Shown piece after piece: positions 2,614 to 56,981 of a DNA stretch of 64,000 nucleotides; within the stretch, counting starts at the first letter, position 1; every line of letters begins with the position of its first letter. The stretch spans positions 45,818,001-45,882,000 of the forward strand of contig OX597834.1 in the NCBI GenBank assembly GCA_951406725.2, written 5' to 3'. The stretch is from Octopus vulgaris. Taxonomy: Eukaryota. The notes beneath the pieces were generated by a model. It worked only from the letters and a program-made list of their open reading frames with translations, was not told the origin of the DNA and did not search any database. The position numbers were made by a program, and so were the translations under genes.

Positions 2614-3179
2614 TTGTGTGACTGCGTGTATCTCTTTAACGGACACGCAATCTAATTCAGAAACCCACCCCACCCAACGCCAGATTTAGAATAAGGTCAC
2701 ATGTCTAAGACTCTTAACAGATTGTGGTGTAGGTCTGACACGCTTTGCGACTGTTCTGATACAATCATAATTGTAGCAGACGACCATCTTGTGTAATAAG
2801 ACACGCGCCTACTACGTCCACGTGACCGGAACATTATGTCACGTAAGGGAAGGTGTTGTCTCTTATCTCTTATTGATTTTTGTACTTACTTCAGATAATG
2901 GAGTGCGGCCTTCCTGGGGCAAGATCTAGATATGTTTTAAACCAACAAATCGACAACACATACTATTTAAGCCTAGCACTTATTCTATAGGTGACTTTAG
3001 CCGAACAGCTCGGTTACGGACACGAAAATGAACCAACACCTGTTGTCTAACTGTGAATAGAAACAGAAACGAACTTAAGCAAGAACAAACAGTCACAAAT
3101 ACACACACACACACACGCACATAAACACACAAACGCGCGCGTGCATACATACATACATACTTACATATATATATATATA

Positions 3180-3364
3180 CCGGAGTAAACACATAAATGT
3201 GAAAGAAGGTGGAAAAAAGAATACTCAAATACCAGTGGTAGAATAATATGCTTTATTTAAAGCAGCAGAAAATTCAACAAGATTCTAGCAAAAACTGTCC
3301 GATGAACGGCAACGTGAAACTCAGAGTAACTGGTTTTGTTGAATTTTCTGCTGCTTTAAATAAA

Positions 3365-3366
<2 letters not shown>
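3180..3366. mobile_element. Fold-back Penelope-like pLTR remnant in (TA)n, copy 1
   Basis: 3251-3280 is the inverted complement of 3336-3365. The spacer holds an HHR motif, both flanks are (TA)n, and a closely similar copy lies at 23307-23450. Confidence 0.7.
3291..3337 (+). ncRNA. Minimal type-I hammerhead motif, CCGAUGA core variant
   Basis: aaaactgt-CCGATGA-acg gcaa cgt-GAAA-ctc a gag-TA-actggtttt: stem II with GNRA loop, near-palindromic stem III, GUA cleavage triplet at 3326-3328, interrupted stem I. Confidence 0.65.
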
Positions 3367-3433
<67 letters not shown>

Positions 3434-3514
3434 CGCACACACATATATATGCACGTACATACATAACATACATACATACATATACATATGCATGTATATG
3501 TGCATATGTATATT

Positions 3515-3725
3515 AAGGGTACAAGCTGGAACGTTAGCGAGCTGGGCGACATGCTTAGTGTTATTTCGTCTGTCTTTACATTCTGAGTTGAAGTTCCGTC
3601 GAAGTCGACTTTGCGTTTCATCCTTTTTGGGTCGATAAATTAAGTACCAGTTGTGTATTGGGGTCGATGTAATCGAGTGACGGCCTCCCCTAAAATTTCA
3701 GGCCTTGAGTCAAGAGTAGAAAAAA
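3515..3725 (+). mobile_element. SINE family C copy
   Basis: B-box-like gagttgaagttcc plus body gtcgactttgc..tcatcct..gggtcgataaattaagtaccag, repeated many times in the window. Confidence 0.8.
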
Positions 3726-15249: not shown

Positions 15250-15544
15250 GTAATAATAATAATAATAATAGTAATAATAATAATAATAATAGTATTAATA
15301 ATAATAATCATCATTTCATTTCTAATAAAGGCACAAGGCCTGAAATTTTGGTAAATCAACTTAGGCGGAATTTGAACTCAGGACGAGATGACGGATTAAA
15401 TACCTCCAAACATCTTATTTTACAAGCGAACATTAACACTTCGGGTAACTTTGCTGATTTAGTATTTGGATTCGGTGTTATTCTATATACTCTCACACAT
15501 TTCGTTAATGCCTCGTCATTATCTACCTGGTTCCTACCTTTTCT

Positions 15545-15870
15545 TAGAGTTCTTTTGGACGTGCCGACAAAACTTTCCCTCTGACCATTTGACCTCGATA
15601 AGGATGTGCTTTATGGCATGAATTTTGTAGAAATTTCTGAATTCATATCCCGCGAATAGTGTTCCAGTATCTGAAGCTAACGTGTCTCGAACACCATATC
15701 GAGAAAATAACTCAAGTAGGAACTCTATAGTTGACTTTGCTGTGTATTTATTGCATCTGCATGCCGGTGGCCACTTTGTATAGCCATCGGCAACGATTAG
15801 ATAGTATGCGCAGTTCACTGGTCCAGCGTAGTCGATAGGTATTCTGGCCCGTGGTCTATCGGTGTTTGCA
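15545..15870 (-). pseudogene. Ty3/Gypsy integrase (rve core) fragment
   Basis: ORF 15534-15890 has RIPIDYAGP..YLIVADGYTKWP..FSRYGVRDTLASDTGTLF..EF, matching the Gypsy RIHIDFAGP..VDAYSKWPE..FG.P..LVSDNG.QF pattern. No LTR or RT nearby. Confidence 0.9.
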
Positions 15871-15980
15871 TAGAGGCCTAATTTGTCCAAAGAGTAGTTG
15901 CGGAAACGTCGGCGGAAGTCGTCCGCAGAACGTAAAGACAGGCGAAATGCCGCTAAGAATTCAGCCTGGCGTTCTAACCA

Positions 15981-16217
15981 TACTTACTTCTTTATTGCCC
16001 ACAAGGGGCTAAACATAGAGGGGACAAATAAGGACAGACAAACAGATTAAGTCGATTATATCGACGTCAGTGCGTAACTGGTACTTAATTTATTGACCCT
16101 GAAAGGATGAAAGGCAATGTCGACCTCGGCGGAATTTGAACTCAGAACTTAACGGCAGACAAAATACGGTTACGCATTTCGCCCGTCGTGCTAACGTTTC
16201 TGCCAGATCGCCGCCTT
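15981..16217 (-). mobile_element. SINE family C copy (variant tail)
   Basis: gtcgacctcggcggaatttgaactcagaac core; tail ...tttagccccttgtgggcaataaagaag on the minus strand. Confidence 0.9.
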
Positions 16218-20877: not shown

Positions 20878-21031
20878 CGGTTGCAACTCATTTCTATAGC
20901 GGAGTGAACTGGAGCAACATAAAATAATGTGTCTTGCTGGAGGACACAATACACACTCCAAGTTCGGGAATTAAACCCACTACCTCATGATTCTGAGCAC
21001 AAAACTCTAACCACTGAGCTATGCGCTTTCT

Positions 21032-21035
<4 letters not shown>
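20878..21035 (-). mobile_element. SINE family D, 5' part (tRNA head plus CORE-like body)
   Basis: tagctcagtggttagag..gggtttaattcc..gcaagacac..ttgctccagttcactccgct..aaatgagtt. Confidence 0.75.
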
Positions 21036-21102
<67 letters not shown>

Positions 21103-21129
21103 GTGTGTGTGTATGTATGTATTGTATAT

Positions 21130-21715
21130 CCAGTGTCAAGTTGATCACAAAACTTGAGGCGATCCAACGAAGCTACACGAAGAAGATAGCCTCTATGCAG
21201 AATATAAGCTACTGGGAAAGACTCAAGAGATTAAAATTATATTCCCTGGAGCGTAGGCGGGAAAGATATGCCATAATATACATCTGGAAGATCCTGGAGG
21301 GAAGTGTCCTGAACTTTGGCATCGAGAGTTACGCAAATGCCAGAACTGGGCGCCACTGCGTGGTGCCTAGGACTCCAAACTTGCCATCAAGATGTAGGAC
21401 AAGATTCTGTGATAGCCTGGGCTTCCGAGGCCCGCAGCTCTTCAATATCCTCCCGAAGAACCTGAGAGACCTGCATGGGGTGGATACAGATGTCTTTAAA
21501 ATGGAGCTGGATCTCTTCCTGTCAGGTGTCCCAGATGAACCAACTTCACGGCAGGAGGGGCAGATGAGGGCAGCTGCATCGAACTCTCTCATGCACCAAA
21601 TAGCAGTTGCTAGAAAGCCTCCATGAAGTGAAACCAAGTAGCAACACCAAATGGCGGTGCCCCAGCATGGCCACAGCTCATAAGCTGAAACTAGAATCAA
21701 TCAATCAATCAATCA

Positions 21716-23173: not shown

Positions 23174-23306
23174 GTATATGTGTGTGTGTGTATATATATA
23201 TATATACACTCATACATGTGTACGCACCCGCATGTATATGCATATTTACTTATGTATACATATATAGGCATATAAGCACATATATATATGTATGTATATA
23301 TATATA

Positions 23307-23449
23307 CTTTATTTAAAGCAGCAGAAAATTCAACAAAATCTGTCAGATTTTGTTGAATTTTCTGCTGCTTTAAATAAAGCATATTACTCTACCACTGGTA
23401 TTTGAGTACTCTTTTTTCCACTTTGTTTCACATTTATGCGTTTACTCCG

Positions 23450-23450
<1 letters not shown>
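23307..23450. mobile_element. Fold-back Penelope-like pLTR remnant in (TA)n, copy 2
   Basis: Perfect 36-bp arms at 23307-23342 and 23344-23379 with a 1-nt spacer. The long arm matches the reverse complement of 3180-3280. Confidence 0.75.
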
Positions 23451-23502
<52 letters not shown>

Positions 23503-24111: not shown

Positions 24112-24230
24112 AAAGATTTGGCTGCTATTTCTCGCACGCCCTGTGGCCACGTAACAAGTATTTGCTATAAAGGACCCGAAATATCTGCTATATGGTAGCA
24201 TGGCGTGCTAGAAATAGCAGCCAAGTCTTT
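24112..24230. repeat. 29-bp inverted repeat (27/29), MITE-like
   Basis: aaagatttggctgctatttctcgcacgcc ... ggcgtgctagaaatagcagccaagtcttt. Confidence 0.75.
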
Positions 24231-28931: not shown

Positions 28932-29596
28932 ATGACAAACTAGTGAATCATACACGAAGTGAAAAAGAAGCGTTTATATGTATAGAAAATAAAAGAAAAC
29001 GACTCACATGCATAACAAATGTGAACACAAGGTGGGAATGTTGTTTAATGCGATGAATTTAGAAGTTGTGAGTTTTGATATGCAAGTCTTTGTCTGGAGT
29101 CGAGCTTAAATTGGAGTGAAACAGCGGAACAAAGGGTGCGGCTCCTCAAACAATGATGGAAACGTGAATCTAAAACACAAGATAAGATAAAAGTGTGTTT
29201 GTGTGTGTGTATGATGAATGTTACAATCATCTCTGAGCTTTGTAATAACATATCCATGCAAGGTCCTCTGCTCTTATACGCTCATCCTTTCACCTGATGA
29301 CACGTTACGGTAGAGACGTGGGATTCCTTTGGACATGTGTTTCTGGTAATCAGACAATGAATGCCGCTGAAGGAATTACCGTCTGAGTTTTATGATATTA
29401 TCAGCCTTATATATACAAAATTGCTATTTTTTTTACCTCGGAAAATTTCAGTAAGGGCACATTTCACCAACATATAAACCTGACTACTACCACCCCCACC
29501 ATCACCACTACCACAACCCCCCACAATCACCACCACCACAACCACCACCACCACCATCACTGCCACCACCAGGCAGGAACTTTTCAGCCATCCTTC

Positions 29597-29651
<55 letters not shown>

Positions 29652-29654
29652 TAT

Positions 29655-30148
29655 ATTCTGTACTATGAGATTCTCCCAAGTAACCAGACAATTAATTCTG
29701 AGAAATACTGCACACAACTGGACGAGCTAAAAGCAGCAATTCAAGAGAAACGTCCAGAATTGGCCAACAGGAATGGTGTTGTTTTCCAGCATGATAATGC
29801 AAGACCGCACGTTTCTTTGGGAACAAAACAAAAATTGCTGCAGCTCGGCTGGGATGTGTTATTCCACCTTCCATATTCACCAGATATTGCTCCTTCGGAT
29901 TTCTACTTATTCAGGTCTCTGTAGAAAAATTTCAATTCCTTGGATGACGTAAAAGATACCTTGATGAATTCTTTGCCATGAAACCACCTCAATTCTGGGA
30001 AGAGGGTATTTTCAAGTTAAAGGAAAGATAGAATCGCATTGTGCAACGAAATGGTTCATACTTGGTTGATTAGAAATGTAATGGCAAGTATTTATTGAGC
30101 TTTTTCTTTCCTTTAAAAATCGACACGAACTTTCCGGACAACCCAATA
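29655..30148 (+). mobile_element. Mariner (DD34D) transposase 3' half with right TIR
   Basis: ILYYEILPSNQTINSEKYCTQLDELKAAIQEKRPELANRNGVVFQHDNARPH..LGWDVLFHLPYSPDIAPSDFYLFRSL*, with 34 residues between the last two Asp. Ends gaactttccggacaacccaa-TA. Missed by the ORF track (no start codon). Confidence 0.95.
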
Positions 30149-33478: not shown

Positions 33479-33686
33479 AAATTATAATTTAGGTTATCTA
33501 AAAGACATCACCACGCTAGAAATAGCAACCAAAACCTGACTCTAAAACCACATAGAATGTGGTTTTCATTTTGTCTTTTTGTCTTCTCCCCTGGTGTTGT
33601 TTGAACATTGAATGTAGATTTAGAGTCAAGTTTTGGTTGCTATTTCCAGCGTGGTGGCATCTCTTAGATAGCCTAAATTATAATTT
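33479..33686. mobile_element. MITE-like fold-back with ~68-bp inverted arms
   Basis: 33479-33546 vs 33619-33686 are inverted with few mismatches; inner hairpin aaaaccaca-tagaa-tgtggtttt. Confidence 0.75.
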
Positions 33687-34689: not shown

Positions 34690-35440
34690 TAGATCCATGC
34701 CTTGATATAAATGGTAGAGTGTAATCCTTGCATGAAAAAGAGAGAAAAACACTGTACAGGATCAGAAGCTCCACTTCATGCATAAACCACAACCAAACTC
34801 ATTATATCAACAAAAACTGAGCTAGGAGTAAGAAAATCAATAGAATTTATCAGATAAAATCAACGACTTCAATCTGAAGAACTGAGATTGGCACTTTGGT
34901 TGGAACAGCAGAACCACAGCGAGGTTCGTAAAAAGAAAACATATCCTCCATAAACATTTAGCAAACAAATATACACTTTTAAGAAATTAGATATAATTGG
35001 CCACTACCCATCCATTACTAGTCATACATTATTAACGGCCCTAAACTTCCCAAAGCCCATTGCACTGTTATAGATAAGGACACGTGAATAATAATAATGC
35101 TGGCTAGAAAAACCAGTAAATCGATTTCCTTATTTAATGGTAGAATAGGGAGAACAAAAAAGACGTAACATAGAAAACCCTCTTTGATGCCAGCCAGAAT
35201 TTCCGCAGAAATTTTCAAATCTAATTGGATTATATATCTTAAAGTTAATCGACAATAAATTCCGCCCTATTAACAGAGGAACCTATAAAGATGATGTTTC
35301 ATCCATCTTCACAAATCTAAACGGGAAACGGACTGATAATTTCGAGAAAGACCTAACCGAACTGTTCAATGATCTGAATCTAAAAATTATAGGAAATAGT
35401 AACTTCAAAATAGTCAATTTCTTAGGCGTGACATTTCAAG
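34690..35440 (+). pseudogene. Penelope-like reverse transcriptase fragment
   Basis: 35221-35439 reads LIGLYILKLIDNKFRPINRGTYKDDVSSIFTNLNGKRTDNFEKDLTELFNDLNLKIIGNSNFKIVNFLGVTFQ, matching the PLE GLYIL..GLYRDD..VNFLDVT pattern. Upstream remnants YPSIT, ALNF and IIMLARKT. Confidence 0.85.
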
Positions 35441-52189: not shown

Positions 52190-52603
52190 CTGGTGGAAAC
52201 TTTGACTCTTCGCAATTAAAGCATTAGCGGTTATTTGTCTTGACATTTTACGTTCTGAATTCAAATTCCGCCTAAACAATCGTTGCCTTTCATTCCAGCT
52301 GGGGTCGATAAAATAGAGTACCAGTGAAGTACAGGGGCTGATGATATTGACTAATCACCCCCACCTAATATTGTTTATTTTGTGCCAAAACTTTCGTCGA
52401 TAAATTGAGCACAAAGAAAGGCAGACAAACGGATTAAGTCGATTATATCGACCCCAGTACACAATTGGTACTTTAGTTATCGACCCCGAAAGGAAGAAAG
52501 GCAAAATTGACCTCGGCGGAATTTGAGCTCAGAACGTTACGGCAGACGAATACGGCTACGCATTTCGCCCGGCGCGCTAACGTTTCTGCCAGCTCGCCGC
52601 CTT
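52190..52603. mobile_element. Two SINE family C copies tail-to-tail (52190-52392 plus, 52405-52603 minus)
   Basis: ttctgaattcaaattccgcc vs ggcggaatttgagctcagaa in opposite orientation. Confidence 0.8.
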
Positions 52604-55384: not shown

Positions 55385-55601
55385 GAAATACCTATTTCTT
55401 TACTACCCACAAACAAGAGCAGACAAACGGATTAAGTCAATTATATTGACTCCAGTGCGTAACTGGTACTTAATTTATCGACCCCGAAAGGATGATGGGC
55501 AAAATCGACCTCGGCGGAATTTGAACTCAGAACATAACGGCAGACGAAATACGGCTTCGCACTTCGCCCGGAGTGCTCACGATTCTGCCAGCTTGCCGTC
55601 T
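55385..55601 (-). mobile_element. SINE family C copy
   Basis: atcgaccccgaaaggatg..cgacctcggcggaatttgaactcagaac. Confidence 0.88.
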
Positions 55602-56316
55602 TATATTCATACCTTGAATATTAATATTACATGACATCAGATATTCTTGTATTAAGTTATTTCACACCTAAATCCTTCTCTGTGGACGGATAATGTATTT
55701 CGAAATCCATAAAAATATTTCCCCTATAAATACGCAACTGAAGAGGGAAGAACCTATTAAACAGCAATTCCACAAGCGATCAAATCATAGCTATTGTAAA
55801 TTTATTCATCTCATATTTTTTTCTTTTTTCGTCATCATTGCTTCCCATTTCACAAAATAAACAGAATGAGAATAAAATATAATTGTAAGACGTAAATAAT
55901 TAATTTAAAATAAATTAAGGTTTCTTGACGCCACACACACTTCAAATTTCGTTATGTCAATAAATTTCTCGCATTGCTATCAAACCTTCCCCGATGTAGA
56001 AACCTTCCTGGAAAATACATATCCCGACTACTTTTCCTGGCAAAGTTAGCAACGAAACGGCGTATTTCGCAGTCTACATTTTTCCTTGGCAAAACTATCA
56101 GCAACAGAGAAGGACTTTCTTCCAGCTGCACTGAACAAATATCGTCGAAGTAGCAAAAATGACTCTAGGAAATATAAAAGCCTTTCTTCTTCTTCTTCTT
56201 CTTCTTCTTCTTCTTCTTCTTCTTCTTTTTCTTTTTCTTTTTCTTCTTCTTCATCTTCTTCTTCTTCTTCTTCTTCTTCTTCTTCTTCTTCTTCTTCTTC
56301 TTCATACAATATGCAT

Positions 56317-56665
56317 GTTAGTTAGTTAATTATTTGGCTCAAAAAGCAAAAAGCAAGACCATGTAGGGGGACATGGAGTTATGTACAGGGTGGTGTTCAT
56401 GCAAAGAGTTCAGGCCATTTGTGGTCAAGGGAGACTTTGAACCGAGCGGTCGTCGGCATCTTCACTATCTCGTCCGACAGCTTATTCCACGGAACCGCAA
56501 CCCGGACGGAGAAAGCTCCTCTCCTTCGACTGAGATGAAATCGTCGCAGATAGAGCTTTGCGGAGTGACTCCGCAGCCGACGTTCTGGAGCAGGAGTGAA
56601 GAACAGCTCTTTCGCGAGGTTACACCTTCCGCTTATGATGTTGTGAGCAAGAATGTGATCATGTG
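56317..56665 (-). mobile_element. CR1-clade LINE 3' fragment with (TAAC)n tail
   Basis: RLRSHSAKL..RRGAFSVRVAVPWNKLSDEIV..ARFKVSLDHKW, the CR1 C-terminal FS.RV..WN.L..FK..LD motif. Confidence 0.9.
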
Positions 56666-56981
56666 TCAAATTAAAGCTCGTATGTCTTACGGAATGCTTC
56701 AGAAATGCATTCTTGACTCTGACAACAATACAAGAATTCCACAGAAGACGGTAAGACCTGGAAGTAAGTAGACGAAATACATGACGTGGCAGTGAACACA
56801 TTCAACACTGACATGATATGGAAACCGGGGCATCGATCAGAATATGAGATGGACAAACTTCTCAGAAAAGGATTATAGCCACAGTTTTAATGATCATTCA
56901 GTGACCAGCGATTCATCTCAAACATCACAAGGCACATTGACGAGTCATGGACGAAAGAGAGCGTATATCAAACAGTAACGA

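Follow-up and report, generated by a model that had tools for sequence, protein, structure and literature searches.

Passages of PMC8557442 describe copies of Penelope-like retroelements (PLEs) as inverted and 5'-truncated, with optional tails and a bias towards microsatellites. The same passages state that the inverted structures cause trouble in short-read assemblies, suggest endonuclease resolution for the tails, and call the function of the PLE hammerhead unclear. According to parts of PMC3846280, palindromes occur at the junctions of inverted copies and are common. PLEs are abundant in Octopus vulgaris according to parts of PMC13282606, and the word "ribozyme" does not occur in its main text. 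For PAc (Poseidon, from Anolis carolinensis), parts of PMC11167929 report that the purified protein cleaves and extends both strands, with a preference for AT-rich targets and with two internal starts. The PAc hammerhead cuts only with the protein, the element can do without this cleavage in vitro, and among RNA-seq reads of the anole PLE none ends at the cut (same parts of PMC11167929).

We studied two copies of a repeat with a hammerhead-like motif in the window (the whole 64,000-nucleotide stretch of O. vulgaris DNA that was analyzed). Copy 2, which has a palindrome at its centre, very probably has a PLE-type architecture. As in the endonuclease-bearing PLEs described in passages of PMC3846280 and PMC8557442, there are head-to-head arms, 5' truncation, a hammerhead-like motif in the module, and a palindromic junction. 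A (TA)n target and two alternative 3' ends may be further points in common, but the 3' ends are 72 nt apart here, versus 30-40 in the published PLE tails (same passages). Those passages do not map a junction onto the cut site. Our search, mostly of openly available papers, found none in which the inversion junctions of PLEs are placed on the cut of the hammerhead. By analogy with these elements, the stump in copy 2 likely comes from the pLTR, or end module, of a PLE.

The other described systems are similar in some ways only. PAc matches the mechanism proposed for this locus in the nicking and extension of two strands, two reverse transcription starts downstream of the hammerhead, and AT-rich targets (parts of PMC11167929), so its mechanism would account for both outer ends here. 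Unlike the motif here, the PAc ribozyme has a canonical C3/G8 core that overlaps the start of the ORF, and joining of cDNA to cDNA is not demonstrated in those parts of the paper, while here we infer it. For the twister variants of Perere-3, genomic 5' ends at the cut have been read as a record of cleavage (parts of PMC8501958), and at R2 snap-back junctions, the 3' ends of cDNAs prime inverted synthesis after full-length copying (parts of PMC11371274). Both resemble the locus here, but those cases have many copies, target-site duplications beside the cut, and assays (same parts); here there is one copy and its duplication is unreadable. Animal non-LTR retrozymes are also short, non-coding, related to PLEs, and equipped with a type I hammerhead (parts of PMC7229834 and of bioRxiv 10.64898/2026.07.22.740005). 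Retrozymes are head-to-tail tandem units (parts of PMC7229834), whereas both copies here are head-to-head stumps. Within the 64-kb window there is no head-to-tail tandem and just one motif site, and on this basis we rejected a non-LTR retrozyme here.

Copy 2 is a 145-bp insertion inside (TA)n and consists of two inverted pieces of the repeat. We give positions in the arms relative to the predicted cut in copy 1, which lies between 3328 and 3329. The short arm of copy 2 (23307-23343, minus strand) covers cut+1 to cut+37 and is identical to 3329-3365 at 35/37 positions; both differences are family letters. The long arm (23344-23451, plus strand) covers cut+2 to cut+108/109, is identical to the long arm of copy 1 at 97/102 positions, and is made up of the shared 37-nt part and a 72-nt extension. 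Both arms run into (TA)n. The left flank (23280-23306, no strand assigned) is a TA-rich microsatellite, in which a target-site duplication is unreadable, and the right flank (23452-23500, no strand assigned) is a TA microsatellite.

The first-pass annotation had described a perfect 36-bp palindrome in copy 2, and this is correct: on either side of T23343, the arms 23307-23342 and 23344-23379 are perfectly complementary in inverted orientation (36+1+36, spanning 23307-23379 with no strand assigned). The palindrome is unique in the 64-kb window among those in non-simple sequence with arms of at least 14 bp and spacers of 0-3, and about 1e-15 such palindromes would be expected by chance, given the composition. 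Its apex has no self-complementary core. The GUA triplet had been placed at 3326-3328 in copy 1, with 3329 as the first base after it, and both positions are right. A gapless alignment of the right arm to 3329 had also been claimed. This is a near-match, but pairing 23343 with 3329 gives only 10/13 identities and opens with a T/A mismatch. If the left arm is read in sense instead (23343 down to 23331), it matches 3329 onward at 11/13 positions and opens with A. Since T23343 complements A3329, the left arm reaches cut+1 and the right arm begins at cut+2. By this register, the head-to-head junction (23343-23344, no strand assigned) lies at the predicted scissile bond, and the earlier placement of the apex at the predicted GUA^ site fits better than first claimed. 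The two differences that remain in this register (3331 and 3333) are family variation. Across contigs of this family from four sequencing runs (described below), 3331 is A in over 99.8% of the depth in 4/4 runs, and copy 1 is the deviant; 3333 is A in 24, 32, 49, and 36% of the depth. Both arms of copy 2 have this common variant, 3333A.

Copy 1 (3179-3365) is built like copy 2 on the opposite strand: 3171-3283 and 23459-23347 are colinear, with 94% identity over 113 nt. By sequence comparison, its long arm (3179-3280, minus strand) covers cut+8 to cut+108/109. Its short arm (3282-3365, plus strand), as defined from sequence and family contigs, covers cut-47 to cut+37 and spans the ribozyme motif. 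One additional G (3281) sits where the two arms of copy 1 meet, and these arms form an inverted pair that is identical over 30 bp (3251-3280 and 3336-3365). An inverted, 5'-truncated partner is joined head to head in 2/2 window copies, and both have the same two fixed 3' ends, 72 nt apart (cut+37 for the short arm and cut+108/109 for the long arm). The outer junctions lie in TA repeats in 4/4 cases, and a duplication within (TA)n is unreadable. We rejected a MITE or DNA transposon: the inverted repeat lies inside the insertion rather than at its two outer ends and is asymmetric, one outer end extends 72 nt further than the other, and the two copies have different centres.

The shared arm part (3251-3280, 3336-3365, and 23307-23379) is identical over 30 nt within and between copies, and its last bases, where the short arm stops, form a small palindrome (3354-3365). 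The 72-nt extension has five differing sites between the copies. All three frames are closed in the 108 nt after the cut. An ATG within the hammerhead core opens a frame across the cut (3302-3365, 3248-3370, plus strand) that stops in the long arm after 29 codons; this frame has no protein relatives. To sample junctions, we also searched with spurious proteins, which had zero matches at near and longer lengths.

A relaxed scan and folding predict a type I hammerhead-like motif at 3286-3341 (plus strand), and this is the one motif site in the window (at 3299; relaxed scan of both strands). Its predicted parts are stem I (3286-3298 with 3329-3341), the core CCGAUGA (3299-3305), stem II (3307-3314, with a GCAA loop), GAAA (3316-3319), and a palindromic stem III (3319-3327). 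The motif departs from the canonical core (CUGANGA ... GAAA ... UH) by a C at position 4 (3300), and the remaining core letters are present. No alternative letter is listed for 3300 in the four runs. Position 3315 is T, A, or G across the family, which leaves a stem II of 2 bp. These letters (U4C and a stem II of 2 bp) make the core a weak variant. U4C reduces activity in vitro and is tolerated in a viroid (parts of PMC3088659). With the family letters, stem I has 12/13 pairs, and the unpaired position is 3333 (G/A), which is the sole family-level variant listed in the first 13 nt after the cut.

In a co-folding prediction, isolated fragments of stem III form a dimer at -9.4 kcal/mol. PLE hammerhead variants that cleave as dimers are reportedly the subject of one paper. 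The monomer of copy 1 has a minimum free energy (MFE) of -8.1 kcal/mol, versus -3.4 kcal/mol for the hammerhead fold, so the MFE structure is not a hammerhead. There were no Rfam hammerhead matches in the window at the gathering score, nor any among the 31 matches to E 10 in 3150-3450. Rfam's miRNA-like matches to the hairpin of copy 1 were far under their gathering scores, and we rejected them. On paper, the motif resembles a minimal PLE hammerhead and is a putative ribozyme. It shares with the minimal, dimeric type I hammerheads described for the pLTRs of metazoan PLEs in parts of PMC4209133 and PMC6765202 the type I layout, a tiny palindromic stem III with a predicted need for a dimer, and many isolated copies. 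Unlike those hammerheads, it has C4 as the apparent family norm, a 13-bp stem I, and a 2-bp stem II that is without the usual G10.1-C11.1 pair (same parts).

For the family data, we aligned contigs from 4 of 24 public runs to 3281-3365, at 80% likeness and with a 1% share as the threshold. All four runs gave contigs (7,773 in total; 4431, 1626, 1245, and 471 per run). The hammerhead-motif family is large and is common to at least three further organisms among the four runs. A 24-nt family motif had no matches in collections of genome, viral, and metagenome contigs. The natural upstream sequence runs on before 3282 in 21, 37, 16, and 7 contigs. In 10, 10, and 1 contigs, the short arm ends into TA; 3 contigs have the form that continues.

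The first-pass annotation had named a sharp peak of breakpoints at GUA^ as support for its model, and at the 1% level we did not see one. In 4/4 runs there was no joint at 1% or above, and ends did not pile up in any of them; rare forms are dropped from such contigs, and a hairpin with a 1-nt loop may be lost by the assembler. The reference extends only 37 nt past the cut on the 3' side, and a joint lacking extra letters is listed only if it exceeds 1%. Among the 24 of 161 loose-end rows listed, none is at the cut site (before 3329 or 3330). Because contigs drop rare forms, this test bounds the peak, and a small one may exist.

Other apexes recur. Zero-spacer fold-backs at CTAG (3285-3288, cut-44) are present in 10, 12, and 2 contigs of runs X1, X3, and X6, and one contig of X3 has a zero-spacer fold-back at CG (3307-3308). 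Both of these apexes are self-complementary cores, unlike the apex of copy 2. The CTAG apex lies just upstream of stem I and has better support than the apex at the cut site. There are also three distinct single joints (3339 to 3289, 3359 to 3311, and 3337 to 3294), of which the last has 3 letters between its ends, is found in runs X2 and X3, and is in the register of stem I (offset 0). At all four spacer-bearing junctions (copy 1 and the three contig joints), one arm enters or crosses the motif, which means that the RNA copied was uncut. The other arms end at cut+8, +9, +11, and +31. The spacers of these four junctions are all 46-55 nt, which may reflect a detection bias or a true preferred loop size.

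Mixed loose ends (agreement 0.47-0.63) lie before 3286, 3289, and 3293, and one of them is TA-rich. We rejected the loose ends before 3291 (24, 23, and 12 contigs) as inverted joins, as they have no match in the reference and a sister family is likelier. Sister families keep the hammerhead core, and their sequences part from this family just past the cut (in 4/4 runs, loose ends lie behind 3328 and 3330); one sister family has G, not A, first after the cut. We also rejected depth across the cut as evidence because each contig has a single depth value and because the 5' side is inflated by sister families, which share the core. The ratios of bin 3326-28 to bin 3335-37, which we do not use, were 0.95, 0.95, 0.85, and 0.77; under a toy model, ratios of 0.94-1.01 correspond to 10% of arms cut there and 0.62-0.84 to 50%.

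We propose, with a probability of about 40%, that the apex of copy 2 arose by run-off of reverse transcription on ribozyme-cleaved RNA. Following PLE biochemistry, the element's protein would nick both strands of the target, and each nick would prime one cDNA from one of two fixed internal starts. The 3' ends of the two cDNAs would then be joined, with the loss of one base. The weakest step is that both templates would have been cut by the ribozyme beforehand, as a dimer or with help from a protein. Copy 2 has two fixed outer ends, the same as in copy 1, so the joining of two cDNAs fits; alternatively, a snap-back may have been resolved at cut+37. L1 twin priming on one RNA yields two non-overlapping pieces. 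We rejected this route since the pieces of copy 2 do overlap.

Run-off leads because both arms end within 1 nt of the bond, the apex has no self-complementary core, and the chance that an apex falls no more than 1 nt from the cut is 3-6% per copy, or 5-12% for one of two copies, before allowing for the number of windows scanned. Against run-off, this is a single copy that was picked for its match, the core is a weak U4C variant with a 2-bp stem II and a monomer MFE that is not a hammerhead, and uncut RNA was copied at four junctions. As the apex at the cut site is rare in the family (under about 1%, if contigs retain it), cleavage would be a side path and not the normal route. The first-pass annotation had interpreted copy 2 as a fossil of reverse transcription on cleaved RNA. 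The head-to-head retro-insertion stands and the joining of two cDNAs fits, but the cleavage step does not follow from our data. Nor can we agree that copy 2 is indirect evidence of cutting in vivo, given that there is no peak at the 1% level and that stem I ends at the same bond.

This last point leads to another explanation, slightly less likely than run-off, in which structure places the apex and no cleavage occurs: either joining in the register of stem I was followed by loss of the loop, or the reverse transcriptase stalled at the folded core. In any hammerhead, by definition, the scissile bond is at the base of stem I. Here stem I is a 13-bp inverted repeat that ends at this bond, so the apex could form without cleavage, and 12/13 of its pairs form with the family letters. 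Because the joint 3337 to 3294 is in exact stem I register (arm, 30-nt core, arm), a class of precursor exists, and removing the core from such a joint gives the apex of copy 2. The junction at 23343-23344 can indeed be parsed in this way, with 3299-3329 lost at a 1-nt microhomology (C): 23335-23344 is identical to sense 3290-3299 at 9/10 positions, which implies a 31-nt deletion. Also, at 3/4 spacer-bearing junctions the other arm stops inside stem I, on its 3' strand (cut+8, +9, and +11), and the mixed loose ends at 3286, 3289, and 3293 lie along the 5' strand. But only 1/4 of the spacer-bearing junctions is in exact register, and losing the loop would take a further, precise event after which the palindrome is more perfect than before. 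Deletions at the centre of palindromes usually leave asymmetry.

Perfect fold-backs might instead form at many positions in the module, so that the one at the cut site was simply picked out. We consider this unlikely. Fold-backs are also found at CTAG and CG with no listed excess at the cut, the chance for one of two copies is 5-12%, and palindromes at PLE junctions are common (parts of PMC3846280). However, both arms of copy 2 end within 1 nt of the bond, and its apex lacks the self-complementary core that the two other zero-spacer apexes have. It is very unlikely that the palindrome is an artefact of assembly or library preparation, with the ribozyme loop dropped between long arms or a fold-back chimera. 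The palindrome is known here from assembled sequence only, long microsatellites flank the stretch, inverted PLE structures trouble short-read assemblies (parts of PMC8557442), and the exact junction of copy 2 is absent from the joints listed in the contigs. But the short arm of copy 2 ends on the very base where it ends in copy 1 and in contigs of three runs, and it joins TA there. A chimera would not reproduce this shared end, which disfavours an artefact. Furthermore, both arms carry 3333A, and copy 1 was assembled intact with its loop.

The palindrome is a real feature and a known kind of structure; where its apex falls is suggestive, but this one coincidence finds no backing in the family data at the 1% level. 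It is somewhat unlikely that the U4C variant with its 2-bp stem II cuts in the germ line and leaves a small, single-nucleotide peak of cut+1/+2 junctions (from two cDNAs primed on opposite strands). If it does, the genome would hold a readable record of PLE ribozyme activity, and twin priming on two templates and a 72-nt tail would gain support. If arm ends across the genome peaked sharply at the scissile bond, this would be inexpensive evidence of cutting by PLE hammerheads, and the classes of junctions would reveal how the inverted repeats of PLEs are built. Because stem I shares the bond, tests of breakpoints need plain target junctions and controls with dead cores.

No ORF for a reverse transcriptase or endonuclease is linked to the hammerhead-motif family in the window, where both copies are stumps. 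There is a decayed PLE-like reverse transcriptase fragment at 35060-35439 (plus strand; identified from HMMER relatives), which is not linked to this family. Pfam did not name it and a word-index search missed it; its relatives were found only by a full HMMER scan, in which the part at 35188-35439 had 196 relatives at E 0.001 or better. Of four relatives that we inspected, three are ORFs of about 700 amino acids with a YRDD motif and, by eye, a C-terminal GIY-YIG-like region. A sub-threshold match to RVT_1 was found in 1/8 relatives.

The window as a whole is microsatellite-rich animal sequence with other repeats. An unrelated inverted-repeat element at 33479-33686 has arms of about 82 bp (71/82 matching) and adjoins a TA repeat; it may be either a MITE or a further stump with head-to-head arms. 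An imperfect inverted repeat at 24112-24230 (32-bp arms, 29 matching) has an 18-nt motif in common with those arms, at 17/18 positions. A set of mobile-element fragments (15537-15983, minus strand; 29484-29921, plus; 21018-21623, plus; 56400-56801, minus) includes an integrase core fragment (rve, E 1.1e-6) and a mariner-type transposase fragment (Transposase_1, E 3.2e-10). Two frames in this set have no Pfam match and look by eye like the C-terminus of a LINE. Dispersed repeat families of 150-230 bp with 70-87% identity (16024-16217, 52411-52603, 55409-55602, 3522-3707, and others) are probably SINEs.
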